The position numbers and the translations under genes are program-made. A stretch of DNA of 64,000 nucleotides, from the sequence record OL964745.1. The stretch is one strand, 5' to 3'. Below the pieces are notes generated by a model. That model was not told the DNA's origin. It saw only the letters and a list, made by a program, of their open reading frames with translations, and did no database searches. This DNA comes from Escherichia phage T4. Position 1 is the stretch's first letter; each line of letters begins with the position of its first letter. Below, piece by piece: positions 3,192 through 63,036 of this stretch.

Positions 3192-3446
3192 TTAAAACGA
3201 ATAGTTGAATCCTTAAAGAACAGCCCAGAACATACTGTTCCTTCTACTTTCTGCCCGGTAGGTCCAATAGCACGAAATCCAGTATGCTGGAAATCATTTT
3301 CAGAGCAACCGAACCAATTATATCCAGTGATTTCAATATTAGTAAAACCACTTGAAGACAAAACTTTGGTTGCATTATCAGCATCAGTACATCCTATTAA
3401 AGACACTGCTAATACTAATGCTGCAATAGAACGATTAATATTTCAT
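3188..3446 (-). pseudogene. small lipoprotein gene with frameshift between start codon and signal peptide
   Basis: ATG AAA TAT TAA at 3446 is out of frame with the downstream signal peptide and lipobox (..SIAALVLAVSLIGC TDAD..); restoring 2 nt (TATT to TATATT) gives one ORF. Confidence 0.4.
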
Positions 3447-3454
3447 AATTACCC

Positions 3455-3625
3455 TTTAAGCAAGTCGTAAAATCCACCATTCACATGCTTAGGAGCGGAA
3501 ACTAACCGAACAGCCAGCCGATGACAATCAGGACATACATCAGTATCTCTTTCAGAAATTTTCTTGATTTTTTCGTATTCTTTTGCACAGTCTTTGGATT
3601 GACATTTATAATCATAAAGCGGCAT
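3455..3625 (-). CDS. small zinc-ribbon protein (about 56 aa)
   Basis: Hand translation MPLYDYKCQSKDCAKEYEKIKKISERDTDVCPDCHRLAVRL...; two CxxC pairs; below the ORF-track size cut-off. Confidence 0.45.
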
Positions 3626-3627
3626 AA

Positions 3628-4053
3628 TTATTCCTTAAAGTAAGCTTTCAACATCTGATATAAAGACCACGCCTGATCATTATTTTCAATAGTAACTTTC
3701 ATGACTGGGAATTCTGTGAAATCTTCTATTTGTTCTTGCTCTTTCTCTTCCTGCTCTTGCTCTTCAACCGCCTGATATGGATTTTCCACTTCATCAAAGA
3801 ACCCAGCTTCGTTAGTAGAGAGCCAGATAAAGTTTTCGTCAAGGATATCACCGCCGGCACAACGTTTGAGTACACCTATGGATGTCATAATTTTAGTAGG
3901 ACGCCCAAGATAATCAGCATCTAAAATTTTAAAAGGCTCCATACCTAAACGTCGTGCATAGATTCCGTTATCAGTATGGTCTTTAATAAAATTTTCTTGA
4001 GCTTGTTTATTTTTAAATTGATACCATTTATTAACTTCAAATTTAATAGCCAT
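3628..4053 (-). CDS. hypothetical early protein (141 aa, acidic C-terminal region)
   Basis: ORF track; tight packing with neighbours on the coding strand. Confidence 0.45.
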
Positions 4054-4268
4054 TAATAAATTTCCTTCCAGTAAGTTGTGCCGTCTTCAGTAATTTCACG
4101 AAATACACCATAAATTGGCTGTTTATCACCGACTTTCTCATACACATAAACAGAAGTCAAGTGAGTAAACTTGCTAGTATGTTCCTTTTGAACTACTACC
4201 AAATTTGGATCAAATAATACATCTTCAAATTCATCATTAGTGCAATTCTGAACAATTTTACGTTTCAT
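4053..4268 (-). CDS. hypothetical early protein (71 aa)
   Basis: ORF track; start overlaps upstream stop in T4 style. Confidence 0.4.
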
Positions 4269-4436
4269 TACAATTTCCTCATTAATTGAACAGTGGAGCG
4301 ATACGTTTCAGAAGAGTATCAACACCTTTAGCGAATTTTCCATTTTATTCTCCAAGTTGTTTTCTGTATCAGTAGTTGATATTGATATAGTACCATAATC
4401 AACTACTGATGTATAGTTTTATGAAAAATTTAAACT

Positions 4437-4922
4437 TTATGCATAGAGAGCATTGCTATAGTGTTTAATCCAACTTTCAGGAATGACTTTGTATGTTCCT
4501 AAAAATACCACGTTGTACAACTTAACACCATCTTCTACCCATTGATCGGTAATGTATCCACACATAGCGCGAGTATAAACAACCCTTCCATCATCTTTAA
4601 TAAAGTTAAATTCACAAGGAGCAATGAACTTGATAGCCTGACCGAGTTTCCACTTAAAGTCTACACCTACATGCGAAGTATCAATCGTTTCAATTCCTTT
4701 AGCAGGAACAGCTTTTAAAAACGCAGACTCAAGAAATTTCGCACGAACATAGCCAAACTGGGGTTTAGACTTTCCATCTTTAGGAATGATACGCACTTTT
4801 ACTTCAGAATCTTCATCTTTAACACCATGCTTAAGCTGAATGCTTACAACTTCGACCAATTTTCCTGCTGCTTTAGAACGGGATTTATCAGATACACGAG
4901 CTAATTCACCAATATTAATCAT
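4437..4922 (-). CDS. motB: MotB-like early protein
   Basis: 161-aa ORF at the T4 motB position; shares a C-terminal domain with the next ORF. Confidence 0.5.
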   Translation of the reverse strand: MINIGELARVSDKSRSKAAGKLVEVVSIQLKHGVKDEDSEVKVRIIPKDGKSKPQFGYVRAKFLESAFLKAVPAKGIETIDTSHVGVDFKWKLGQAIKFIAPCEFNFIKDDGRVVYTRAMCGYITDQWVEDGVKLYNVVFLGTYKVIPESWIKHYSNALYA

Positions 4923-4998
4923 AGTTATCTCTCACTTGTTAAAAAGATTTTATACTCCACGGGACCATTATACTCTGGTCCCAAGAGTTTGTAAACTA

Positions 4999-5430
4999 TT
5001 AATTCAAAATAGCTACCACTGCACTACGAGGAACTACGGAGTACTCTCCAGCATGAACTACGTTCAGAAGTTCAACGCCATCTTCAATCCATTGGTCAGT
5101 TACCCAACCACCAATCGGATTCGCAAATGGACGACGAATGTAAACTGCCTTACACAACAAATCAGTCGGGTCTTCAGGTTTTTCAATTTCTGTCAATAGA
5201 TTAAAATCTTCTTCATAGATGATGAATGATGATACCCTTCCATAATAGTTTCTAATTTCCATGTACACTGTACCAATGAGAATTCCACTATTAACACTAA
5301 TGACAGTAAAAGGATATCCGCCAGTTGTACCAAGAAGTTCCCAAAATTTGCTATCAGTCGTATTCGACATTGTCTGAAAATCAATTTCAGATGGTTTTTT
5401 CATTTGATACGCAGTATTAATTTTAATCAT
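4999..5430 (-). CDS. MotB paralogue (143 aa)
   Basis: C-terminal GGWVTDQWIEDGVELLNVV resembles ITDQWVEDGVKLYNVV of the preceding ORF. Confidence 0.45.
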   Translation of the reverse strand: MIKINTAYQMKKPSEIDFQTMSNTTDSKFWELLGTTGGYPFTVISVNSGILIGTVYMEIRNYYGRVSSFIIYEEDFNLLTEIEKPEDPTDLLCKAVYIRRPFANPIGGWVTDQWIEDGVELLNVVHAGEYSVVPRSAVVAILN

Positions 5431-5543
5431 AATTTTCTCTTTAGTTTAAGGTAATAAAGCCTTTTAGTTCGGCATAGGATTTTATTATCCTCAGTAGCTA
5501 TGGTGTTATAGTACCACAACTAACCGAGGAAGTAAACAACTTT

Positions 5544-6227
5544 TTATCGTTTTGTTGGAAGAGATAGAGGATCGCATTCTTCCTCTGATGGAGCATCTTC
5601 AAGACCCATAGCATATCGCAAAGCATACTTCATCATCAGGATGTCTTTCGCACAGTCATGAATAGAATCATGTGCAACGAATCCATCTAAAGTTCCCTTT
5701 GGAAGAGGACACGTTGTCATATCACGAACAAGCAGAAGTGCTTCAATTCTAGTACGAATATCACGCTGATTCCAAAATTTACAAGGTTCTAACTTAAATG
5801 TATCAAGCTCATTCTCGGAAACGCCGTTAAGACGTTGAATATCGCGAATAAGATCGACTAAAATTGGAAAATCAAACGACATTCCACGGCACCAGCCTTG
5901 AGATTTCCAAGGATCGATATTATGTGCATTGATGTAATCATTAAATTTTGCAATACCGTCGATAGTGCTTACATCTTCATCGGATGGTGCAATATTTTTT
6001 CGAGCTTCAGGAGATTGATTCTTCCACCATTCGATAGTACTTTTAGTAAAAAGACGGTGTCCTTTTTGGCTTTTTAAATCAAATTTGATTTTAATGCCAC
6101 GTGAAACTAATTCATCGAATGTTTCAACTACTTCTGGATTAGGGTCAAAAGCAATTACAGCCAAATCAATAACCGCTGCTTTTTCACCACTTCCCATTGT
6201 TTCAAAATCTATAATAAAATCAAACAT
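5544..6227 (-). CDS. dexA: exonuclease A (DexA), DnaQ-like 3'-5' exonuclease
   Basis: 227-aa ORF with DEDD-type motifs (FDFETMG, HDSIHDCAKD). Confidence 0.85.
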   Translation of the reverse strand: MFDFIIDFETMGSGEKAAVIDLAVIAFDPNPEVVETFDELVSRGIKIKFDLKSQKGHRLFTKSTIEWWKNQSPEARKNIAPSDEDVSTIDGIAKFNDYINAHNIDPWKSQGWCRGMSFDFPILVDLIRDIQRLNGVSENELDTFKLEPCKFWNQRDIRTRIEALLLVRDMTTCPLPKGTLDGFVAHDSIHDCAKDILMMKYALRYAMGLEDAPSEEECDPLSLPTKR

Positions 6228-6424
6228 TAAATTTTCCTCGCTAAATCACGAATTTGACCTACAGTATAGTCTTGAATATAAACTTTATTAATAGGCTCAT
6301 CAATAAATTTTGCCATAGATTCAATATCTTTTTGTATTTCTTCAAGACTGTATACTCTTTGAAGCTTTTTCGCGAATAGTGATATTTTCAGGACCCGGAT
6401 TTTCTTGAATGACAACTTTAACAT
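6227..6424 (-). CDS. hypothetical protein (65 aa)
   Basis: ORF track; position of T4 dexA.1. Confidence 0.4.
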   Translation of the reverse strand: MLKLSFKKIRVLKISLFAKKLQRVYSLEEIQKDIESMAKFIDEPINKVYIQDYTVGQIRDLARKI

Positions 6425-24310: not shown

Positions 24311-24385
24311 ATCCGTATCAGTAGTTGATAGTTGTATAGTACCATGGAAGAACAGTCTTGTAAACAGTTTTGTGAAAAAATTTTT
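24305..24385 (-). repeat. conserved early promoter plus 5' leader element
   Basis: About 80-bp element also at 49601..49675, 60773..60862, 4347..4440, 48166..48225, 63647..63715; minus-strand core GTTTAC...GGTACTATACAACTATCAACTA...GGAG. Confidence 0.55.
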
Positions 24386-24447
24386 AGGGAATCCAAAGGG
24401 TCCAGAATCATCTCTTTTTCATAAGTATAGATTTATATTACTTGTAT

Positions 24448-35158: not shown

Positions 35159-35940
35159 CTATAAAACGCTACGAATAGGCCCAAACATATCCATAAGCAA
35201 TTTTGCTTTTTCCAGATTGCACTTTTTAATATTAGACATGCATCCTTTAACGGATACAGCTGCGTCTTTAATTCTAGGAAATACTCGTAATAATTTTCCA
35301 GTAGTATCATATTGAAATACTGGCACATTTCTTTTCTGAGTTATCCCACGTAGATTTAGACATTTTTTGTTTAGTTGCATTAGACATCCTAGAGGGCTTT
35401 CCTATGTTATCAGAATAATATTTCCATTGAAATCCTCCAGCGGTTTTCCTTTTACCATCTACACATTGTTTAATTGAAGTTGAACAGCTATGACATATCT
35501 TCTGCAGCATCTGTAATACATCTATATTTGCGAATAAAATTTCCATTTAAATCATATTGATAAATTGGTTTTCCAGCATTTCGTCTAGCGTTAGACATGT
35601 ATTTATTATCATCTTTCCAGAACTCTTTCATGCTTTCCGATATTGAAGAAGATACAGCTGTTTTAATCCATCCATACATTATTATTTAGTCTTGTTCCGT
35701 CAGAACTATAACATCATACGAATAGCTAAAGCCAATTTAGGAAGTCTATAAATTTTAAATAATAAATGCGCGGTAAAATGTTCTTCTGGTGTCAAAAGAA
35801 CTAAATTAGTTTTATCATCTGTACCACCCATACATCTAGGAATTATATGATGTGTTTCAGTATAGTATGTCAAAAGACTTTTATCATTGCCTCTGTTTAG
35901 TCCTTTTTCGATCAGTAAATTATATGTTTAAATAATTCAT
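35159..35940 (-). pseudogene. mobB: HNH homing endonuclease remnant with tandem DNA-binding repeats (mobB-like)
   Basis: ATG at 35940 (MNYLNI*), then HNH motif TETHHIIPRCMGGTDDKTNLVLLTPEEHFTAHLL in another frame; three track ORFs carry repeats PIYQYDLNGNFIRKYRCITDAAEDM and PVFQYDTTGKLLRVFPRIKDAAV. Confidence 0.5.
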
Positions 35941-39701: not shown

Positions 39702-40055
39702 TTAATCATGTTTCCACACCCCATCGGTATTTGACCAAAGTCGCTGATTATCTGATCCTCGCCACAGCTTTTTGGTCGGAAGATTTTTCTCATACTTCCC
39801 ATCAATAATAACATCAACATATTTAAGCATTTCTAGTTGTTTAATATCTTCAAACTTATATCCTGTCCACAACCAGATATCTTTCTCCGGAAATCTTGCT
39901 TTAACCCAAGAAACTAAATTTGAAATCTCTTCTCGGTTCTGTGGATAAAGTGGGTCACCGCCGGTTAAGGTAAGGCCTTGGATATACGATTTGCTTAAAT
40001 GGGACGCAAGTTCTTTAACGGTATTCATAGTGAATAACTGTCCGTTACGAGCATT
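39702..40055 (-). pseudogene. nrdG: NrdG activase, 3' part only
   Basis: NARNGQLFTMNTVKELASHL..LTGGDPLYPQN...KDIWLWTGYKFED...IIDGKYE...WRGSDNQRLW aligns with the C-terminal two-thirds of NrdG; the CxxxCxxC radical-SAM N-terminus is absent. Confidence 0.75.
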
Positions 40056-40822
40056 CCCCGTTTATATGAAACAATGTAATTTGGATAATTGTCATCTAAA
40101 CACAAATCTTTAATACGACTTGGGTGGAGTTTTAAATCTTTAGCAGCATCCACAAATGATTTATAGATATTGTCATTTATTTTAACATATTCTGGGACGG
40201 GATGAATTGTTATTTTTATATCTATAACATTTGGATGATTACTAACCTGTTCTTCAGAGCATTTAAGAAATTTTGCAGCTGATTTAAAACTTCTAAATTT
40301 ATTTCCGGATTTTAAAGCTATAGAAACAGTCTTTTTAGCCGTTCTACTACCAATATTATTTTTAACATGAGCTTCACTTCTACTATTATTTTTATAATGC
40401 TCAATCAATTTCTCTCGTATCTTATCTTTATGTTTTAAAGATAAGATTTTACCTTTATGGGCATTACTAAGTTTTTGCTTATGTTCTTCTGAATCCGGAT
40501 ATTTGTTAAATTTATATCCACCTATAGATTTATTAAGAATAAATTCGTTATTAAAATATTTCCTAATAAGCATTTCTTCATGTTTAAGGGCCGATTCATA
40601 AGAATCAAAAACTTGAAGAATTATCCACTTAGCTTTATAATCTTTAAGCTTTTCTTTAACAAGCTTAGATGACGAATTGTATTCTTTCCAATTTGTATCT
40701 TTACCATATATAGTTTTGAATTTTTTAAAACCTATATAAAAAGACTTATCAGGAAATCTTACCATATAGGTAAATGCTACAGAATTGGCAATTTTTAAGC
40801 TTTTTCTTAATTTCCATTTCAT
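40025..40822 (-). CDS. GIY-YIG intron endonuclease, I-TevII-like, with altered C-terminal tail
   Basis: 265-aa ORF (FTYMVRFPDKSFYIG plus NUMOD-like repeats) just 3' of a group I intron core; last ~10 codons run across the junction into nrdG sequence. Confidence 0.75.
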   Translation of the reverse strand: MKWKLRKSLKIANSVAFTYMVRFPDKSFYIGFKKFKTIYGKDTNWKEYNSSSKLVKEKLKDYKAKWIILQVFDSYESALKHEEMLIRKYFNNEFILNKSIGGYKFNKYPDSEEHKQKLSNAHKGKILSLKHKDKIREKLIEHYKNNSRSEAHVKNNIGSRTAKKTVSIALKSGNKFRSFKSAAKFLKCSEEQVSNHPNVIDIKITIHPVPEYVKINDNIYKSFVDAAKDLKLHPSRIKDLCLDDNYPNYIVSYKRGMLVTDSYSL

Positions 40823-41057
40823 CGTTTCACCTCGTATTCATATTTATACGAGGATAAACAGCTGCATGTCACCATGCAGTTCAGACTATATCTTCAACTC
40901 TTAGAGTTGTCTGCCGTTTCGGGTCGCTTGACCCTACTCCCTTACATTCATCAGGGATAGTCGTTGGGCATTTACAGCTACTGCTGATTTAGCAACGGAT
41001 TGTCTCAGTGAGAGTTTCCCGTTTTAGGCAGATTTTACATGAGCTTGACTTACGTTA
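40056..41057 (-). mobile_element. group I intron of nrdD (sunY type) carrying the I-TevII ORF; 3' terminus apparently missing
   Basis: Minus RNA from 41057: UAACGUAAGUCAAGCUCAUGUAAAAUCUGCCUAAAACGGGAAACUCUCACUGAGACAAUCCGUUGCUAAAUCAGC... (td-like core), then the endonuclease ORF. About 1002 nt against about 1033 recalled for T4. Confidence 0.75.
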
Positions 41058-41595
41058 ACTCATAAGCTTGGAATGCATCGTATACGTCTTTTTCTGTTTT
41101 AGATTGAGCATAATTCAACGCATCAGCGATTTGCCATTTTTCTGCATCCTCAATATGTTTTGCATAGGTGCGTTTAACATAAGGAGAAAGTACTTTATCT
41201 ACATTCGCAAAAGTCGTTCCGCCGTATTGGTGAGAAGCAACTTGCGCAGTAATTTGTGCCATAATTGCAGTAGCAACTCCAATTGATTTAGGAGTTTCAA
41301 TCTGCGCATTACCAAGCTTAAATCCGTTTTCAAGCATTCCTTTTAAATATACTAAACAGCAATTAGTAAATGGAAGAGCAGGGGAATAATCAATATCATG
41401 CACGTGAATAATTCCGCTTTCATGCGCTTTCATAATAAAAGACGGGACCATATTTTTGGCAATGTGTTTAGACACAATACCAGCCATAAGGTCCCGTTGA
41501 GTTGGAAAAACACGAGAATCTTTATTAGCATTCTCGTTTAAAAGGTCTTTATTAGTTTTATGAATTAATCCTTCAATTTCTTTTTCAATTGTCAT
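41058..41595 (-). pseudogene. nrdD: anaerobic ribonucleotide reductase NrdD, exon 1 only
   Basis: N-terminal class III RNR sequence (ENANKDS, HVHDIDY, FTNCC with Cys at residue 79), ending ..FQAYE at GCTTATGAGT immediately before the intron; no exon 2 in the window. Confidence 0.8.
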
Positions 41596-42715: not shown

Positions 42716-43036
42716 TTATAGCGTAATCCATTCTCGTACTGTCTGAGTTACTACACGTTCTCGAAGCTCAACCAGTTCAACAGTAGGAACTGCATAATAC
42801 CAGTCAGAATGGTAAGAACCTGAGCGAGATTCATTTACAGCCACATGTACATTATGTTTTGGACTAAAATAAACACACTGACGATATTGGCATTTACCAT
42901 CTTGCACCCAGTCTTCTATTTCGATAGGTTTAAGATAGTCGGAAAAATCGAAATCATAGTTTTCCGAAAATGCATCATGGTCTTCAATGATTTCGCTCAG
43001 AACTGCATCAACATCTAATTTATTTTCAATATTCAT
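42716..43036 (-). CDS. hypothetical protein (106 aa)
   Basis: ORF track. Confidence 0.4.
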   Translation of the reverse strand: MNIENKLDVDAVLSEIIEDHDAFSENYDFDFSDYLKPIEIEDWVQDGKCQYRQCVYFSPKHNVHVAVNESRSGSYHSDWYYAVPTVELVELRERVVTQTVREWITL

Positions 43037-43341
43037 TTTTCACACCACCAACTGCTTACTTCAAAATCGGGTTCGCCATGTTCCCAGAACCAGGGGCCGA
43101 TAGGAATCCACTTACCTTCATCGGTGACGTCATATTCTTCGGATTTAAGCCCAACGTATCGCCATTCGACTTCATAAGCGGTACCACCGATTACAACTGT
43201 GTTCTCGCCATACGGGTTAGACACAACAAAGTCTATACCTTCTGCTTTAGCTAACCAAATCATGTATTCATAGAGTTTATATTCCAGGTCGCCTTCTGTT
43301 CCATCGCCTAGAAAAATAATTTGTTCATTTAATTCTATCAT
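43033..43341 (-). CDS. hypothetical protein (102 aa)
   Basis: ORF track. Confidence 0.4.
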   Translation of the reverse strand: MIELNEQIIFLGDGTEGDLEYKLYEYMIWLAKAEGIDFVVSNPYGENTVVIGGTAYEVEWRYVGLKSEEYDVTDEGKWIPIGPWFWEHGEPDFEVSSWWCEK

Positions 43342-43601
43342 TTAAAGTATTCCCGCAATTGGTCAAATCCACCAATATGACTTCCATCAGGAGCAAATAC
43401 CTGAGGCATTGTTAAGCCGATTTGAGTATCACGACCTAGTTTAGTCAGAAGCTCAGCAATTTTCTCATCATCAAAAACACCTTTTTCCGGCATAATGTTG
43501 ATAAATTCAAACGGCTGTTTCTTCACAGTCAAAAGACGTTTTGCATTATCGCAATACACACATTTATGAATGTTGCTATCATAACCATATACTTTAAACA
43601 T
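43338..43601 (-). CDS. nrdC: thioredoxin/glutaredoxin NrdC
   Basis: 87-aa ORF with CVYC active site. Confidence 0.85.
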   Translation of the reverse strand: MFKVYGYDSNIHKCVYCDNAKRLLTVKKQPFEFINIMPEKGVFDDEKIAELLTKLGRDTQIGLTMPQVFAPDGSHIGGFDQLREYFK

Positions 43602-44208
43602 ATTATTCCTTAATTCCTAGTACTTGTTTAAAAGTCTCGTCGTAATCAAGACTTTGGCCCGTTTGTTCTTTATGCTTGTATATAATCACTTACTTCTGAT
43701 AGCATATTTTTATATGAACGAGTTAAAGCAGATTTAAGCACGCTGTATCTATCAGGAAATTTACCGTGTTCATTATAATAAGCTTGCTAATTCACGGACT
43801 GCCTTTTCAGCAGTCTCCATATTCTTTACGCTTTGTCATTTTCTTCTCGGTCAAATCGGTGTTTACAATGGCGACATTTAACGAAGATTATTAGTCTGCC
43901 AATGGACCAATTGCACCTGTTCAGTTCCACATTCAGGGCAATTAGGAACGTTTTTAGAAGCCCTTTCGCGACGTTCAACCATGACCATTACAGAATCCCA
44001 ATTAACAGGAGGGCTAATCATCACAACCATAAATCTTTCCACGCATTTCCAGATCGTCTTCTTCACCAGCCATAATAATTTTAATTAGACTAGAATTACT
44101 TGAAGCTGCAATGTCTTCTAATAGACGCTTTTTCATTTCAATACCTCAATAGCAGTTCTTCTCACTTGGTTAATGATTTATACTCCGAGCCATCCTTGGC
44201 TTTAAATT

Positions 44209-44499
44209 TTACTTAATTAACTGCAAAGCTTGTTCTAGACGATCAAGACGATTAACGGATTCTTCCCAAATCTTTTTAGCCTGCTCATATTCTTTCTGCG
44301 CTTTATTAGAAATTTCTAGAACTTCTTTATAAGCTTTTTCTAGTGCAATAACTTCTGGACGAATTTCTATCGGTTCAGGTGAATCATCAAGACATTCCAT
44401 TAGTTCCTCAAGGGTAGTTTCTTCTTTAGGAGTATTCACAATTTCATCACATTTTTGTTGGTAAATTTCTTTACTAGTAGGTGAATAAGCACATTTCAC
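44209..44499 (-). CDS. hypothetical protein (96 aa)
   Basis: ORF track. Confidence 0.4.
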   Translation of the reverse strand: MKCAYSPTSKEIYQQKCDEIVNTPKEETTLEELMECLDDSPEPIEIRPEVIALEKAYKEVLEISNKAQKEYEQAKKIWEESVNRLDRLEQALQLIK

Positions 44500-44900
44500 T
44501 TCACGAAGGCTAATTACGAGTTTATATCCTTCCCAACCGCATATTCTTAAAAGGATATGTATGAATTTCTACTGTTTCCATACAAAGTAATGCGGTCTCT
44601 AATTGACGAGTTAGTGCTAGCAATTGAGAAAAATTTATTAATATTCTTTTGGTTAGTTTCTGGTGTAAAAAATCCATAATTCACAAATAGATACTTTATT
44701 TTTATCAAGTTCATATTCTTTTATGATAATCATATCAGAAGCCAAAGGATGAATTTGACGATAATCGCCAACATAATTTAGAAGCTGATTTTAGAATTTG
44801 CTTCTTGAAAAGTCTGAAATTACTAATCCAACGACGAGTAAAAATATTCTCAGGGTCTTCTTTATTATTGAGATGATAAGAATTAACATCACCGAACCAA

Positions 44901-45155
44901 TTATCCTACTACATCTTTAGTTCGTTTAATTTCTTTCCCAAAATTACCAAGAATATCCCGATTAACCAAATATGAAAGAAGACGAGACTCTTTAAAGGTT
45001 TTCTTGATAACATCTTTATCTACACGGCTAGAAATTTTACGAATTTCATGAATAAATTTAGTAGAAGAAACAATACTTGCATCAACACTATTGAGCCACT
45101 GATTGATAATAGAAAGAACGCTATTTTGGCCAAACATCGGTATAGCTATCATCAA
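44901..45155 (-). CDS. hypothetical protein (84 aa)
   Basis: ORF track. Confidence 0.35.
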   Translation of the reverse strand: MMIAIPMFGQNSVLSIINQWLNSVDASIVSSTKFIHEIRKISSRVDKDVIKKTFKESRLLSYLVNRDILGNFGKEIKRTKDVVG

Positions 45156-45221
45156 TAACGCTATTGAATGATTTGATATTCGTTACGAGTCATATTAATC
45201 TCCTCAGTAGAAAGTAAGAAC

Positions 45222-45252
45222 ATTATACCACATCCTTGTGGCAAAGTAAACT
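45222..45252 (-). promoter_or_regulatory. T4 early promoter
   Basis: Minus strand GTTTAC (rc 45247-45252) then TGGTATAAT (rc 45222-45230). Confidence 0.5.
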
Positions 45253-45511
45253 AGTTCAGTGCATTTAGTGCATTGTTCAGTTTAGAACGTTGCTTTGTCA
45301 GATTTTGAACCCTTGACTGAGCTTGTTCTAACGCCTTTTCAGCTTCTAGCACTTCATTGGTCGCTTTAACTAATTCAGCATCTACTGCCTTAAGAGACTT
45401 CTCAATCGCATCCGCGTGCCATTTTTCAACAGGTTTAAGACTTGGATTTTCAACAGGAAGAAAATTCACTTTATTGAATTTCCATGCATCTTTATTACCT
45501 GAGCTATACAT
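45251..45511 (-). CDS. hypothetical coiled-coil protein (86 aa)
   Basis: ORF track. Confidence 0.4.
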   Translation of the reverse strand: MYSSGNKDAWKFNKVNFLPVENPSLKPVEKWHADAIEKSLKAVDAELVKATNEVLEAEKALEQAQSRVQNLTKQRSKLNNALNALN

Positions 45512-45539
45512 CCAAAATTTAGGATCGTTTGATAAGTAA

Positions 45540-46271
45540 TTAGATATTTAAGTTATCTTGCACTTCTTGCTTTTTCTCTTGTGTGACTTCGTCCTTTCTC
45601 AAAAATTCATATTTAAATGAAACGATCATATCAAGTTCATATGATGTTGTATCTAACTTAAATCGTTCAAAACGAGGTAAAATCTTAGATTGAACAGCAG
45701 CAACAACATCCATATACTTAAATGCTTCTGTCAACTGCGATTTAAGGCATTCGCAAATTGAAAGAGAATTTTTTGTATTAGGTTTAAAGCTAATTCGTGC
45801 AGTTCTATTATTTTCTTTTAACGGTCTTACTTCCATCTGAAGAGTATAACCATCAAATTTCAGATTCTTTAAGTTAATGTCAGAGCCTTTTAATCGACTA
45901 GCAGTAGACAAAATTTGCTTTAATTGTCTACGGAACAGAGCAATAAATCTCCATTCAATACGATAATGATTTGGATTGAAAAATCCAGATGATAAATCGA
46001 CCTTACTTTGACCAACGCCTTGAACAAATAGAGGATTTTTATAATCAATAGTTTTACAGAAATCGGTGAGCTGTTCACGAGCAGTCATTTGAGTAATATA
46101 CCCTGCTTTACTAAAATTACGCACCCATTCACTGCTATTCGTATACTTAAAGTGATGAATAACACGATTAACTTTATCAGGGTCTAAATTATTTTCACAC
46201 AAAAATGTCATAACATCACGAGTATAGCTGGCATTACGAACCATATCTTCAATTTGAGAACGAGTTTTCAT
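45540..46271 (-). CDS. hypothetical protein (243 aa)
   Basis: ORF track. Confidence 0.5.
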   Translation of the reverse strand: MKTRSQIEDMVRNASYTRDVMTFLCENNLDPDKVNRVIHHFKYTNSSEWVRNFSKAGYITQMTAREQLTDFCKTIDYKNPLFVQGVGQSKVDLSSGFFNPNHYRIEWRFIALFRRQLKQILSTASRLKGSDINLKNLKFDGYTLQMEVRPLKENNRTARISFKPNTKNSLSICECLKSQLTEAFKYMDVVAAVQSKILPRFERFKLDTTSYELDMIVSFKYEFLRKDEVTQEKKQEVQDNLNI

Positions 46272-49708: not shown

Positions 49709-50056
49709 TCATTTATAATAACTTCGATGGTTTTCAAGATAAACCCTCTCAAGGAAGTCATCCCAGAAACTCATGTCTACTTTTTGCTGCATACCGTTCT
49801 TAGAAGCTTCAGTAGATGCTGCTTCTATAAATCCTGGGCATGAAGAATAAAAATGAATTTTATGCTCATCATTAATGCTTACAATTTTATCAGTGTAAGC
49901 ATATTCAATTTGGGTTAAACGAACAATTTCGCTAGGCGTAAAATATAACATGTCATCTTCTTGCGTCAAACGATACATGTTATTTACTTTTTCTATAGCC
50001 AATTCACCAAAAAGTGGACTAACTTCTAATACTAGTCGTTTCGCCTCGCTCATCAT
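49709..50056 (-). CDS. hypothetical protein (115 aa)
   Basis: ORF track. Confidence 0.4.
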   Translation of the reverse strand: MMSEAKRLVLEVSPLFGELAIEKVNNMYRLTQEDDMLYFTPSEIVRLTQIEYAYTDKIVSINDEHKIHFYSSCPGFIEAASTEASKNGMQQKVDMSFWDDFLERVYLENHRSYYK

Positions 50057-50383
50057 TACATACTCCTCTGAATCATATTAATAATGTTATTCACCAGATT
50101 ATAAGTAAACATTGGGTAATTATATTGAATCATCACATATATAACAAACAAAACTTTCATTCTCTTCTCCTTGGCAGTTGACAAGATTACTATACCATAA
50201 TCTTGTCAACTTGTAAACCATTAAATGACGTTTTCGATAAAATTTTGAAGCTTTGTATGAGCATCAACCATGATTTTCATTTCTTCCTTGGCAAAAGCTG
50301 TGCCTCTTTCCCGAGAAGAACATTCATAGTCAGAAACTGCATTAGCATATTCTTCAATTAGCTTCATTAAAAACATCTGTTTT

Positions 50384-50578
50384 TCAGTTTTCATTATTCC
50401 ACCTAATCATTTCAAGATATTGAACTAACTTAGCTTTGGATTTATCCAAATCCCTTTTAGCTGCTTCTATACCGTCGTATGAATATCCTTCACAATGCTC
50501 AACTGCTAATTGATATGAATCTATTTCAATATCATGCGCTAATTTAATGATTTTTTCAAACTGTTCGCGTGTTAGCAT
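50384..50578 (-). CDS. hypothetical protein (64 aa)
   Basis: ORF track. Confidence 0.35.
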   Translation of the reverse strand: MLTREQFEKIIKLAHDIEIDSYQLAVEHCEGYSYDGIEAAKRDLDKSKAKLVQYLEMIRWNNEN

Positions 50579-54948: not shown

Positions 54949-55092
54949 GTTATTCTCCTCTTAACTGATAGAAAAATTATACCACAGTCAAGAGGAGTCC
55001 ATTTCTGTATTTACCCATTACCGCGCTTGGGCTCGACCTTATTACAGGTTGGCGGGAATCCCTCATATAATCATGAGGTCCAGGTTGTTCCC

Positions 55093-55509
55093 TTATGCAT
55101 AAATCGCCTTACCGTAGTATTTGTACCAAGTAGGACGTTGTGCAATTTTTTCATCTAAACGAGCTTGTGATATAGCAATAGAAGCTTCATGGGGAATATA
55201 ATCACCACGGAATTCCTGAGGAATATCACTAATATCCTGGACTGTAGTATCCTTGATATTAAAACCACGTTTTAAACATTCAGCTATAAGCTCAATTTGA
55301 CGTTTACGTAAGAACTCGAGCTTATCGTAAAAGAATGTAACATGACCTGCGCCAAGGATAAAAGTAGGACTGATTTTAAAATCACGAACACGTTTACCGT
55401 TAGCAACATGCTTACGAACTGCACCAAAAACACGCGGCAATTCACGATATTCAGCCATTAAGTGTTGGTCAGCCAATTCAGATACTAAAGTAAGGTTGAT
55501 ACGAGTCAT
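55093..55509 (-). CDS. denV: endonuclease V (DenV), pyrimidine-dimer DNA glycosylase
   Basis: 138-aa [30 protein letters not shown]... Confidence 0.95.
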
Positions 55510-55569
55510 TTTAGTGTTCTCCTGTAGTTGATAGGTCTATAGTATCATACCTACAGGAGATGTAAACTG

Positions 55570-55872
55570 TTATTTATCTTTAATTGCTTTAGCTGCTTCG
55601 ATAGCCGCTTGCTGAAGGTCATCCATAGACATGCCGAACTTAGAAGCAAAGTTATCAATTTTCTTTTCGACGGCATTCAAAGGCTTGGCCTGTTTACCTT
55701 CATTAGCGCCAGGAAGAGCGAGAATACGCTCTCTGTCAATATAAAGGCTTACAAGTTTCTTACGGTCTTTATCGGGCAAATCATGAAATGAATGGGCCTT
55801 TTTATTTACAGCGGCTTCTAATTTACCTGCGCCCACTCGCGCTTCGGCAATAAATTCTTGATATGTTTTCAT
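55570..55872 (-). CDS. ipII: internal protein II
   Basis: 100-aa ORF beginning MKTYQEFIAEA (capsid targeting sequence). Confidence 0.85.
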   Translation of the reverse strand: MKTYQEFIAEARVGAGKLEAAVNKKAHSFHDLPDKDRKKLVSLYIDRERILALPGANEGKQAKPLNAVEKKIDNFASKFGMSMDDLQQAAIEAAKAIKDK

Positions 55873-55987
55873 ATGTTTCCTTTAAATGTAAATATTTTTA
55901 TTATTCTATCCTAGAATTGTGATAATATATTCACAATTCTAGGAGTTGTAAACTGCTTTTATTTAAGCGTCCCAAGTATAAGCTTTA

Positions 55988-56569
55988 TTAAGAATTACCA
56001 CGGGCTGCATTAGCAACGGCGTAAGCGTACTGAATATTAGCGTCTTTAAACTTACCTTTAGAGGTATCTATTTCTGCCTTAAAGCCGCCTTTAGTCATAA
56101 CATCGGCAAATTCTTTACGGAAAGCCATTGCATCAAGACCTTTCCATGATGATTTATGCTTGGCAAATTCAAGACCTGCGAAGTTGACAGCTTTAGCCAA
56201 TTTATTATCAATGACCCATTTACCGGCTTTAGGCACAAACTTCGGGCCTTTCTGTTTAGAGAACAGTTTTAAATTCCAGCGGCGAAGGTCTGCATCAGCT
56301 TTAACAAATTCTGAGTCTAAGTTACTAGCAACAACATCTTCAATATGAGCAAATTTAAGTCCGTCAACTTCAATATTTAAATCGGTACGCCAGCGAAGTC
56401 CTTCCCAAGCGAAGGCTTTAAAGTCGGAAGCCTTTGTAGCTAAGTACCGTTCAATAGGAGCTGTTTTAGGGTCAAAGCCGTTTCCTGATCGGTAGGTCCA
56501 CTCATCTTTGTTAATGCCTTTGGCCTTTACTACAGAAGCTTCGGCAATAAATTCTTGATATGTTTTCAT
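55988..56569 (-). CDS. ipIII: internal protein III
   Basis: 193-aa ORF beginning MKTYQEFIAEA. Confidence 0.85.
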   Translation of the reverse strand: MKTYQEFIAEASVVKAKGINKDEWTYRSGNGFDPKTAPIERYLATKASDFKAFAWEGLRWRTDLNIEVDGLKFAHIEDVVASNLDSEFVKADADLRRWNLKLFSKQKGPKFVPKAGKWVIDNKLAKAVNFAGLEFAKHKSSWKGLDAMAFRKEFADVMTKGGFKAEIDTSKGKFKDANIQYAYAVANAARGNS

Positions 56570-56656
56570 ATGTTTCCTTTAAATATTTTAATTAGTAATT
56601 GTCTATTCAAGTAATTGTGAATATACTATCACAATTCCAAGAGAAAGTAAACAGCT

Positions 56657-57620
<964 letters not shown>

Positions 57621-57793
57621 TTTAATTTCCTGCATTCAGTGATAAAGTTATTTAAATTTTGAGCATATTTCTTTTCATCAAAAATCTTTTGCTGTCTGCG
57701 TAACCGCCATGGCATTTCAATGAACATACGCCATATTCCTGATAATACTGCTGCTGTAAAAATATTAACAAGTAGTTAAAAGAATCCAATCGC

Positions 57794-58102
57794 CTATTCT
57801 GTCCATTGGATTTTTATAAAAAAGTAAAATACGAATGATGATATAGGAAGACTAATGATATACCACAGAAGAACCTTCTTATCTGTGAACCAATCAGCAT
57901 TCGTTAACTTAGCGCGACCATTTTGAATACACACGAATTTATCATCTGTTACAGTAAATGGCTTAGCTGCTTGATATCCCATTCTAAACTCCCTAATTAA
58001 TCGTTTCTTTGTATCTTCGGAACAACCATTCCAATCAACTCTATCAACTGGAATGCCATCATCCCCATCATCTAAATCATACCAGCGAGTTTTTAAAATC
58101 AT
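57794..58102 (-). CDS. hypothetical membrane protein (102 aa)
   Basis: ORF track. Confidence 0.4.
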   Translation of the reverse strand: MILKTRWYDLDDGDDGIPVDRVDWNGCSEDTKKRLIREFRMGYQAAKPFTVTDDKFVCIQNGRAKLTNADWFTDKKVLLWYIISLPISSFVFYFFIKIQWTE

Positions 58103-58461
58103 TTAATTTTCCTGCAATCAATCACAAACTCTTTCATTGATTCATTTTCAATATAAGACATGTAGCTATTATATTCTTTTAATTGTATTTTGTAATCCTT
58201 TTTTCTTTGCCAATTTATTTTAAAATTATCATAATGAAAATATAAAATGATACCAAAGAATGAAAACAATGAAATAATTTTAGTATAACAAAGCTCGCTC
58301 CAAACTTCTATTATATCTACTGTACCACTGATTTTTAAAATAAAACAGTCAATTAATAGTCCAATAAGACTACCTGTAAGAGCTGCAGCCAACGCCACAG
58401 CAAAAATTAAAAATGACTCAGAAAACGAATATTTGACTTTATTTAGCTTTGGCTTTTGCAT
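58099..58461 (-). CDS. hypothetical membrane protein (120 aa)
   Basis: ORF track. Confidence 0.4.
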   Translation of the reverse strand: MQKPKLNKVKYSFSESFLIFAVALAAALTGSLIGLLIDCFILKISGTVDIIEVWSELCYTKIISLFSFFGIILYFHYDNFKINWQRKKDYKIQLKEYNSYMSYIENESMKEFVIDCRKIK

Positions 58462-60502: not shown

Positions 60503-60829
60503 TTATTTCATATTATTGAAATATTCTTCTGCGATTTCGTCGTTATCATGGTAAACTTTAGAAGACAGTTTAACATAACTTTCAGCAGTGAACATGTTAA
60601 TCACAACCTTTACAGTATACCACTGACCGTCTTCATTACCCATTACTGCGTAAGTTTCAAACATCGGATGGTCAGGACCGATAACTTTAATATCATTCAC
60701 CGTACGACCGAAATCTTCTGAAACACATTTCATAAAGAAGTTGAAAAGTTCACCGTAATTATCCATTTTATTCTCCAAGTTATTTTCTGTATCAGTAGTT
60801 GATAGTTGTATAGTACCATGGAAGAACAA
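60503..60829 (-). CDS. hypothetical protein (108 aa)
   Basis: ORF track. Confidence 0.4.
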   Translation of the reverse strand: MFFHGTIQLSTTDTENNLENKMDNYGELFNFFMKCVSEDFGRTVNDIKVIGPDHPMFETYAVMGNEDGQWYTVKVVINMFTAESYVKLSSKVYHDNDEIAEEYFNNMK

Positions 60830-61039
60830 GGATGTAAACAGTTTTGTGAAAAAATTTTTAAAAAGTTTTAGGGAATTCTAGGGCGGAGAGGGGCAATTAA
60901 AAGATAGGATAATATATTATAAAGGGTATAAACTAAATGATGCCTAGAGAGGTCTGGAAAGGCTTAGATACCAAAAAGCCCCAACCTTTCGGTCGGGGCT
61001 AAGCCTTGCGGCAACCTTGTCGGGGTTCCACCTGCCAAG

Positions 61040-62760: not shown

Positions 62761-63036
62761 TTACCATTTATGATGATACGTATTTACGATACATTCAAGA
62801 CCCAAAGGATTCTTGAAAATATCATATTCAAGAGGACCTTTTTCTGTTTCAATAAAGAAATCAAAATTTACTGTATTAAATTTACGGTCTTCCTTTACTA
62901 ATTTAACTTGAGAAGATGAACGATCAATGTAAACCTTTTCAACTTCAAAACACGTTAAAATGCCATAATCATCAATCAAGGCTTTAGCTGCTTCTTGATC
63001 ATATTTATCCATTTTCAACGGATGATACTTTCGCAT
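62761..63036 (-). CDS. hypothetical protein (91 aa)
   Basis: ORF track. Confidence 0.4.
   Translation of the reverse strand: MRKYHPLKMDKYDQEAAKALIDDYGILTCFEVEKVYIDRSSSQVKLVKEDRKFNTVNFDFFIETEKGPLEYDIFKNPLGLECIVNTYHHKW

Follow-up and report, generated by a model that had tools for sequence, protein, structure and literature searches.

The closest described relatives of the sequence analysed here are laboratory mutants of Escherichia phage T4 produced by the CiPGr method, in which the phage goes through hundreds of serial transfers with pooled SpCas9 guides and repair templates (Yuan et al. 2022, Nucleic Acids Res 50:13183, PMC9825161). The designed deletions remove either 100 bp or a whole gene, with about 8 spacers for each non-essential gene, and the resulting genomes were assembled de novo with SOAPdenovo (PMC9825161). 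One clone, T4_583L, has a genome of 151,790 bp. The same paper lists "nrdG-D" as an undesigned large-fragment loss in the CiPGr lineage, and describes the large-fragment losses at the nrdG-nrdD locus as heterogeneous (PMC9825161). Microhomology-mediated deletions by which T4 escapes CRISPR targeting have also been reported (Wu et al. 2021, mBio, PMC8262927). The junctions of T4_583L, with 4–10 nt of microhomology, fit that description, whereas those of the sequence studied here, with 0–1 nt and a fixed deletion length, do not.

Affiliation with genome-reduced T4 clones

Judged by its sequence, the window (the whole stretch of DNA that was analysed) comes from a laboratory T4 of the CiPGr lineage with a reduced genome, of which it covers the left 64 kb. 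Base 1 is common to the window, OL964735.1 and MZ375356.1, the latter two both deposited as "Mutant Escherichia phage T4" clones, and SNPs at MT984581.1 positions 4843, 46126 and 61272 set all three apart from the wild type MT984581.1. The window therefore matches deposited CiPGr clones in both linearisation point and stock SNPs. Alignment to MT984581.1 gives 4 SNPs, five large deletions and 64 small deletions, and the change NrdD D83Y (window position 41349, C>A on the + strand) is found in other CiPGr clones as well. Whole-gene deletions of the designed type are present, as are small deletions, which cluster in non-essential genes that were targeted. Our search for a specific CiPGr accession found no deposited record or assembly with the window's junctions.

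Two clones allow a direct comparison. The cassette-100 mutant T4_3t3 (OL964735.1) has the record origin of the window and three of its SNPs, including D83Y, and over the first 36 kb of the window deletions are the sole difference between the two. However, T4_3t3 has lost about 100 bp at each of three places in this region, in deletions of the designed cassette-100 type that are absent from the window; its nrdG-mobC-nrdD region is intact, and it has no deletions shorter than about 100 bp over the region compared. T4_583L (MZ375356.1) shares with the window, base for base, its motB.2 and nrdC.3 deletions, and also has the same left breakpoints at nrdG, nrdC.11 and vs.3 and the same 108-aa ORF left over from nrdG, whose ATG again lies in an ATGA overlap. 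It differs in also lacking part of mobA, modA-modB, ipIII and e.2-e.8, and in having more small deletions.

The small deletions are mostly common to these two genomes, with 47 of the 64 identical in T4_583L and 11 more lying within 6 nt. The 6 that were not found in T4_583L indicate that the window is a sibling of that clone, neither its direct ancestor nor its descendant. Nearly all of the small deletions (58/64) remove only A/T, and 41/64 are losses of a tandem unit. AT-richness or slippage was nevertheless rejected as their full cause: they are confined to certain genes and shared with T4_583L, which argues for lineage history over context-driven error. Among homing-endonuclease genes, mobB has 11, segF 3, segB 3 and I-TevII none, and the block between gene 61 and the 3' part of a-gt (T4 17.8–37.5 kb), where the genes for replication and recombination lie, is free of them. 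The share lying no more than 2 nt from an NGG-predicted SpCas9 cut is 33%, against 31% for matched controls; in this comparison, which takes any NGG, a view of the small deletions as scars of Cas9 cutting finds no support.

The lineage bears directly on how the join between nrdD and nrdG is read, as the earlier note, in its simplest reading, had taken it for a single clean deletion. A spontaneous event of this kind in an ordinary T4 stock or a natural isolate would agree with flanks that are 99.9–100% T4 and with an arrangement found in no wild-type T4 record, but we regard it as extremely improbable. It is contradicted by the Cas9-lineage context and by the accompanying changes, which comprise four other large deletions (two of them ORF-precise and of designed type) and 64 small ones beside only 4 SNPs. 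In practice it is already refuted by the record origin, SNPs and deletions that the window has in common with published Cas9-generated mutants.

Architecture of the nrdD-nrdG junction

In the given sequence, nrdD exon 1, its intron and I-TevII abut nrdG codon 39; of exon 2, mobC and the N-terminus of NrdG nothing is left (Table 1). Reading out of I-TevII, the sequence runs AAACGGGG and continues directly with AATGCTCG of nrdG; it is clean across the join, with flanks 99.9–100% T4. Wild-type T4 (NC_000866.4, MT984581.1) has the same exon 1, intron core, I-TevII residues 1–255 and nrdG codons 39–156, with one SNP, but there the intron continues for its final 32 nt, and exon 2 (1280 nt), mobC and nrdG codons 1–38 are present as well. 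No reference T4 record shows the window's arrangement, the deleted 2046-bp block occurs at no other place in the window, and the junction DNA had no match in INPHARED phage records, IMG/VR or JGI metagenomes.

Table 1 Features of the nrdD-nrdG locus and of the other large deletions in the window.
Feature	Position	Strand	Basis or remark
nrdG 3' part, 356 nt from codon 39	39702..40056	-	Pfam Fer4_12; comparison with full-length NrdG
I-TevII ORF	40025..40822	-	265 aa: native residues 1-255 plus 10-residue out-of-frame nrdG-derived tail
Deletion junction	40057		MT984581.1 42788 joined to 44834/5; 2046 bp missing; 1 nt (C) microhomology
nrdD (sunY) intron, about 1000 (1001) of 1033 nt	40058..41057	-	Boundaries from T4; Rfam RF00028
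Predicted filler at nrdD locus, 1282 nt: exon 1 3' half, intron, I-TevII	40058..41339	-	Difference between 3328 and 2046 bp
nrdD exon 1	41058..41595	-	538 nt, codons 1-179 plus 1 nt; Pfam NRDD; 99.9% identical to T4
motB.2 461-bp ORF-precise deletion	5479..5482		Designed CiPGr 'cassette-gene' type; identical in T4_583L
nrdC.3 905-bp ORF-precise deletion	44154..44155		From ATG; leaves 22 nt including nrdC.2 start; identical in T4_583L
Second 2046-bp deletion, nrdC.11'-mobD-mobD.1'	49827..49828		Left breakpoint as T4_583L 2688-bp deletion
Predicted filler at second 2046-bp deletion	49828..50469		Reference sequence expected absent from phage
Third 2046-bp deletion, vs.3 to vs.8'	54996..54997		Left breakpoint as T4_583L 2608-bp deletion
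Predicted filler at third 2046-bp deletion	54997..55558		Reference sequence expected absent from phage

The 181-aa ORF that begins with exon 1 (41595..41050, - strand) matches only profile positions 1–141 of 562 of Pfam NRDD (E 1.6e-39), and a full-length NRDD catalytic domain is absent from the window's NrdD. Exon 2, with the C-terminal glycyl-radical domain (PF01228, which was found in an intact NrdD homologue), is nowhere in the 64-kb window. The exon 1 end, GCTTATGAGT followed by TAACG, is the T4 5' splice site, and the intron opens with TAACGTAAG after the exon-terminal U, exactly as in T4. Rfam Intron_gpI (RF00028) aligns at 40862..41093 (- strand) over model positions 1–253 of 253; its 105.3 bits exceed the family's gathering score of 50, and the catalytic core (P3–P9) is complete. 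At its other end the intron has lost its last 32 nt, and with them the terminal hairpin, the 3'-terminal G and the 3' splice site.

The I-TevII ORF is identical to T4 I-TevII at 255/258 residues, after which the C-terminal VEK-stop is replaced by GMLVTDSYSL-stop. Its Pfam scores lie below the respective cut-offs for SegE_GIY-YIG (21.5 bits, cut-off 25), NUMOD1 (22.3, cut-off 22.8) and NUMOD3 (18.7, cut-off 20.4), and an exact match to the 265-aa fusion protein is found in no public assembly. Its TGA overlaps, as ATGA, the start codon of the 108-aa remnant ORF (40028..39702, - strand), which corresponds to NrdG Met49. The remnant of nrdG matches Pfam Fer4_12 (PF13353, E 2.2e-29) at profile positions 40–136 of 137, and the radical-SAM CX3CX2C motif CLHKCEGC (T4 NrdG residues 26–33) has gone with the deleted codons 1–38.

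Much of this had been anticipated in the earlier note, which described a deletion relative to wild-type T4 that leaves only the N-terminal part of NrdD and no exon 2, a td/sunY-like intron core after exon 1 in an intron some 30 nt short, an endonuclease ORF with a new tail and an ATGA overlap, and an nrdG without its radical-SAM cysteine N-terminus. These descriptions agree with the sequence data, and their coordinates are essentially right. The proposed end of the deletion at about codon 45 of nrdG must be moved to codon 39, and the proposed size of about 1.5 kb was too small because mobC had been left out; the actual gap is 2046 bp. The note had also proposed that the 3' splice site was lost and anaerobic dNTP synthesis inactivated. 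The loss of the 3' splice site, of the glycyl-radical exon 2 and of the radical-SAM NrdG N-terminus would indeed knock out anaerobic ribonucleotide reduction, and as the outcome of a deletion this part stands, but the particular 2046-bp junction at 40057 is very probably not physical.

Three deletions of one length

We judge the junction very probably unphysical because the window has three deletions of equal length, each exactly 2046 bp, that start at the breakpoints of larger deletions in T4_583L. The microhomology at the three window junctions is 1, 0 and 0 nt with reference to MT984581.1. At the same start bases, T4_583L has deletions of 3328 bp (base 42789, 8 nt microhomology), 2688 bp (base 55541, 10 nt) and 2608 bp (base 62777, 4 nt). 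The pattern is that large deletions below 2046 bp are intact in the window, whereas every deletion above 2046 bp is cut to 2046 bp. The breakpoint homology of several nt that marks a microhomology-mediated deletion is missing at the window's 2046-bp junctions, and the three stretches retained beyond them are 100% wild-type; the one at nrdD has none of the small deletions of the lineage. An exact-protein look-up found no record of the ORF that spans the second 2046-bp junction. In both T4_583L and a contig from a Logan assembly of raw reads (SRR22215995), position 42788 of MT984581.1 is joined directly to 46117; the contig encodes gp49, a 95-aa NrdD fragment and the 108-aa NrdG remnant, and its junction is exactly that of T4_583L.

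We consider it highly likely that the window derives from a CiPGr-lineage T4 with a 3328-bp nrdG-nrdD deletion, applied in the given sequence for 2046 bp only. Each of the three deletions longer than 2046 bp would begin at the right base yet stop after 2046 bases, and at nrdD 1282 nt of unmodified reference would stay behind, giving the apparent fusion of intron and I-TevII to nrdG. From its relatives, we infer that the window's own clone would physically carry the 3328-bp allele, although a sibling with 6 private deletions could in principle carry others.

This same sibling status is one of the points in favour of a reading in which a clone of the CiPGr lineage physically has the 2046-bp deletion and would keep exon 1, a 3'-less intron and a tailed I-TevII. 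Such a clone would also be consistent with a clean read across a junction whose flanks are 100% T4, and with the heterogeneous losses reported for the locus (PMC9825161). Nonetheless, we think it unlikely, as it needs three unrelated loci to have the same deletion length and the start bases of T4_583L with the available microhomology unused. The fusion proteins it predicts are encoded by no public assembly, and the independent raw-read assembly has the 3328-bp junction.

Blunt junctions and deletions of equal length have a non-biological character, and could also point to some artefact that involves no length cap, such as a misassembly or an edited or synthetic sequence based on a CiPGr genome. 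We hold this to be very unlikely: de novo misassembly does not yield fixed-length gaps that start at true breakpoints, whereas a cap predicts the observed division between deletions below and above 2046 bp. Block-wise loss of data on a fixed grid was also rejected, as the deleted blocks do not fall on multiples of 2046 or 2048 in either T4 or window coordinates. The cap itself would presumably come from a reconstruction of the genome from reference plus variants with a fixed limit; against this, the GenBank record of T4_583L shows no truncation of its large deletions, and the CiPGr genomes are reported to have been assembled de novo. Our conjecture for the number is that 2046 is 2048 - 2, with one anchor base and a string terminator occupying the remainder of a 2048-character buffer.

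The probable underlying allele and its meaning

In the real phage, most likely, nrdD codon 88 is joined to nrdG codon 39, and both the intron and I-TevII are gone. Cas9 pressure would have selected an undesigned deletion between two copies of the 8-nt repeat AGCATTCC (+ strand), located at nrdG codons 37–39 and nrdD codons 86–88. The 3328 bp removed would comprise the 5' end of nrdG, mobC, nrdD exon 2, the entire intron with I-TevII, and the 3' half of exon 1, leaving the 95-aa NrdD fragment overlapping the 108-aa NrdG remnant. The real allele, too, has the ATGA overlap, but behind the NrdD fragment and not behind I-TevII. For the orphan intron with its intact core and the newly tailed I-TevII, unremoved reference sequence is the most likely source. 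The 3328-bp deletion would abolish the anaerobic reductase, which aerated culture does not require; that T4 passaged aerobically under Cas9 challenge loses nrdD and nrdG only confirms that the enzyme is dispensable there. The nrdG-nrdD loss in the CiPGr lineage is already published, and the join is not new biology.

The main consequence concerns data quality. The three stretches listed as filler in Table 1 are most likely not in the phage, and to annotate an I-TevII::NrdG' fusion, an intron that lacks its 3' splice site or other junction ORFs would be to describe an artefact. A single deletion length that recurs at unrelated loci can serve as a simple general flag for truncation. Were the 2046-bp allele true after all, the phage would transcribe an nrdD in which the group I core is intact and the 3' splice site is missing, and would produce I-TevII with a new C-terminal end and no homing site left in the phage's own genome, in an accidental test of how an orphaned intron and endonuclease affect the phage.

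Noisy long-read assembly with homopolymer errors was rejected as a source of the window's differences, since relative to modern T4 only 4 SNPs are seen and homopolymer ±1 events are nearly absent. The many mismatches to NC_000866.4, among them those in the mobA region, are errors of that older record.

The nrdD–nrdG locus

Searches with Pfam and Rfam and BLAST against T4 bear out the arrangement described in the earlier note, in which nrdD exon 1 and its intron, with the I-TevII gene, run into a remnant of nrdG. The exon 1 ORF matches the Pfam profile NRDD (E 1.6e-39) over profile positions 1-141 of 562 only, and the exon ends at GCTTATGAGT followed by TAACG, which is the T4 nrdD 5′ splice site. 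The TGA of the I-TevII ORF overlaps the ATG of the 108-aa nrdG remnant, from which the CLHKCEGC cluster motif of NrdG is missing. There is a single junction at this locus, at window position 40057, and BLAST gives a gap of 2046 bp relative to T4; the earlier figure of about 1.5 kb fell short through the omission of mobC. The gap takes out the 3′-terminal 32 nt of the 1033-nt intron, the entire 1280-nt exon 2, mobC and nrdG codons 1-38, and no copy of this block is found elsewhere in the window. The sole remaining similarity to it within the window is a 62-nt stretch of mobB (35791-35852), 81% identical to part of the deleted mobC, which is paralogy of two HNH homing-endonuclease genes.

Features of the locus, large deletions and clusters of small deletions (MT, coordinates in MT984581.1)
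Feature	Window position	Strand	Details
nrdD exon 1 ORF	41595..41050	-	first 179 codons of class III ribonucleotide reductase
Group I intron core	40862..41093	-	complete; Rfam RF00028, 105.3 bits (gathering score 50)
I-TevII ORF	40822..40025	-	255/258 residues as T4 I-TevII, then GMLVTDSYSL and stop
nrdG remnant ORF	40028..39702	-	108 aa, NrdG residues 49-156; Fer4_12 profile positions 40-136 of 137
motB.2 deletion	5479-5482		461 bp; ORF-precise, from ATG, downstream gene start kept
nrdC.3 deletion	44154/44155		905 bp; ORF-precise, from ATG, downstream gene start kept
nrdG-nrdD deletion	40057		window MT 42789..44834, 2046 bp; T4_583L MT 42789..46116, 3328 bp, 8 nt microhomology (AGCATTCC)
nrdC.11'-mobD-mobD.1' deletion	49827/49828		window MT 55541..57586, 2046 bp, no microhomology; T4_583L MT 55541..58228, 2688 bp, 10 nt microhomology (GCTGCTTCTA)
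vs.3-vs.8' deletion	54996/54997		window MT 62777..64822, 2046 bp, no microhomology; T4_583L MT 62777..65384, 2608 bp, 4 nt microhomology (AGGA)
Small-deletion cluster	about 11.7-15.1 kb		mrh, segF, dam
Small-deletion cluster	about 34.8-36.0 kb		mobB
Small-deletion cluster	about 43.7-46.4 kb		nrdC.1-6
Small-deletion cluster	about 50.8-53.6 kb		mobD.5, rI.1, tk.4
Small-deletion cluster	about 57.2-57.8 kb		nudE
Small-deletion cluster	about 61.6-62.0 kb		segB

Relationship to Cas9-reduced T4 clones

Alignment of the window with the older T4 reference NC_000866.4 reveals 143 small differences besides five large gaps. About 80 of these differences vanish when MT984581.1, a modern T4 resequencing, is used as the reference; they reflect mistakes in NC_000866.4, as do most of the SNPs and single-base differences, and are not features of the phage. 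Scattered over several sites, they include successive single-C ‘deletions’ in 60.1-mobA (window about 1250-1480; NC_000866.4 3450-3684), a region that modern records annotate as one longer mobA ORF. Relative to MT984581.1 there are 4 SNPs, 1 single-base insertion, 64 small deletions and five large deletions.

Base 1 of the window is also base 1 of OL964735.1 (“Mutant Escherichia phage T4 clone T4_3t3”) and of MZ375356.1 (“clone T4_583L”, 151,790 bp), which both begin at T4 position 2200. Both are products of CiPGr, the Cas9-based genome-reduction study of Yuan et al. 2022 (PMC9825161), and T4_583L is its smallest T4 mutant. In that study, a pool of SpCas9 guides, with about eight spacers directed at each non-essential gene, was combined with repair templates carrying 50-bp arms, designed for either 100-bp or whole-gene deletion, and phages were passaged through 300-600 serial transfers; undesigned losses of large fragments from T4 were also reported (PMC9825161). 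The three SNPs that separate both clones from MT984581.1 are all present in the window. One of them, C>A on the + strand at 41349, gives NrdD D83Y (codon 83, minus strand); because it is found in OL964735.1 (100-bp cassette type), in T4_583L (whole-gene cassette type) and in the window, it probably goes back to the T4 stock used in that laboratory and is not a selected change.

OL964735.1 carries three ~100-bp deletions in this region that the window lacks, whereas the motB.2 and nrdC.3 deletions are those of T4_583L, base for base, and match the CiPGr whole-gene cassette design. Of the 64 small deletions, T4_583L shares 47 exactly, and another 11 have a counterpart in it within 6 nt; six are private to the window, and some T4_583L deletions are absent from it. 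Because these two large deletions and most of the small ones are shared, the window is identified by sequence as a sibling clone of T4_583L in the whole-gene-cassette lineage. A spontaneous deletion in ordinary T4 is an exceedingly improbable origin for the nrdG-nrdD gap.

Three deletions of identical length

The other three large deletions cross gene boundaries with 0-1 nt of microhomology, and each is exactly 2046 bp. Every deletion longer than 2046 bp has the right start in the window and a length of 2046 bp, and all shorter ones are intact. In T4_583L, the 3328-bp deletion is bounded by two copies of AGCATTCC, in nrdG codons 37-39 and nrdD codons 86-88, leaving a 95-aa NrdD fragment (residues 1-88 plus VTDSYSL and a stop) that overlaps an identical 108-aa NrdG remnant.

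That the 2046-bp allele physically existed in a CiPGr clone is unlikely. Three independent events would have had to share one length and the T4_583L starts while leaving the microhomologies unused, which is not credible biologically, and SRR22215995 (a Logan assembly of raw reads) instead shows the T4_583L junction base for base, with gp49, the 95-aa NrdD fragment and the 108-aa NrdG remnant. Derivation of T4_583L from 2046-bp intermediates would require three second deletions beginning exactly at the old junctions. The I-TevII fusion protein, a second junction-spanning ORF and the junction DNA of the window were found in none of the public collections searched.

The explanation is very probably a real 3328-bp CiPGr deletion cut to 2046 bases at reconstruction of the sequence. 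The actual event would be a Cas9-selected deletion, for which we infer a microhomology-mediated mechanism from the anatomy of the junction; it would have removed the anaerobic reductase system, which is dispensable in aerated passage. Applying this deletion for only 2046 bases would then yield the apparent series of exon 1, intron core and I-TevII::nrdG', a junction that most likely exists in no actual phage. The underlying nrdG-nrdD deletion is already published in the CiPGr study.

The stretches that such a cap would leave (40058-41339, 49828-50469 and 54997-55558) are 100% wild-type, and I-TevII has 0 small deletions, vs 11 in mobB, 3 in segF and 3 in segB. The second and third of these stretches are probably spurious reference sequence. 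The cap equals 2048 - 2, and, as a conjecture, a 2048-character field holding one anchor base and a terminator would account for it; some other artefact is quite improbable. The CiPGr paper's tools were breseq and SOAPdenovo (PMC9825161), and T4_583L's own record shows no truncation to 2046 bp.

Predicted consequences

NrdD and NrdG are predicted to be non-functional whether or not the junction is real. The earlier interpretation is partly correct: deletion and inactivation both stand, but the size was wrong and the CiPGr context was missed. Were the junction real, guanosine binding by the intron core and cleavage at the 5′ splice site could still take place, but exon ligation would be impossible because the 3′-terminal G and exon 2 are missing. 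In sunY, the 3′-terminal domain reportedly contributes to activation of the core as well. The I-TevII protein would carry ten new residues in place of VEK.

Small deletions

The 64 small deletions comprise 45 of 2 nt, 13 of 3 nt, 3 of 4 nt and 3 of 1 nt; 2- and 3-nt losses thus predominate, whereas the CiPGr paper describes ‘one- or two-base deletions’ (PMC9825161). Most remove only A/T (58/64, vs ~26 expected by chance), and 41/64 lose a single copy of a perfect tandem unit (~8 expected). No enrichment was seen at generic NGG cut sites (33% vs 31% in controls), and none lies between gene 61 and the 3′ part of a-gt (T4 17.8-37.5 kb; replication and recombination genes). They cluster in the non-essential genes mobB, nrdC.1, nrdC.2, nrdC.4, segF, segB, dam, tk.4, nudE, rI.1 and mrh, frequently as frameshifts inside the first few codons, and there are almost no SNPs in the genes that bear them.

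Other observations

A 75-bp direct repeat (93% identical; 24312-24386, imm.1-gene 43 intergenic, and 60786-60860, between e.8 and rnaC) is also present in wild-type T4. In the T4-like relative KX130861.1 (170,650 bp; locus 3405-6327), nrdD is intron-less and full-length (605 aa), and an HNH gene comes after it. For nrdG, the annotated 108-aa product coincides exactly with that of the remnant in the window, which suggests either that the start codon was called differently or that nrdG of that phage has a natural N-terminal lesion.
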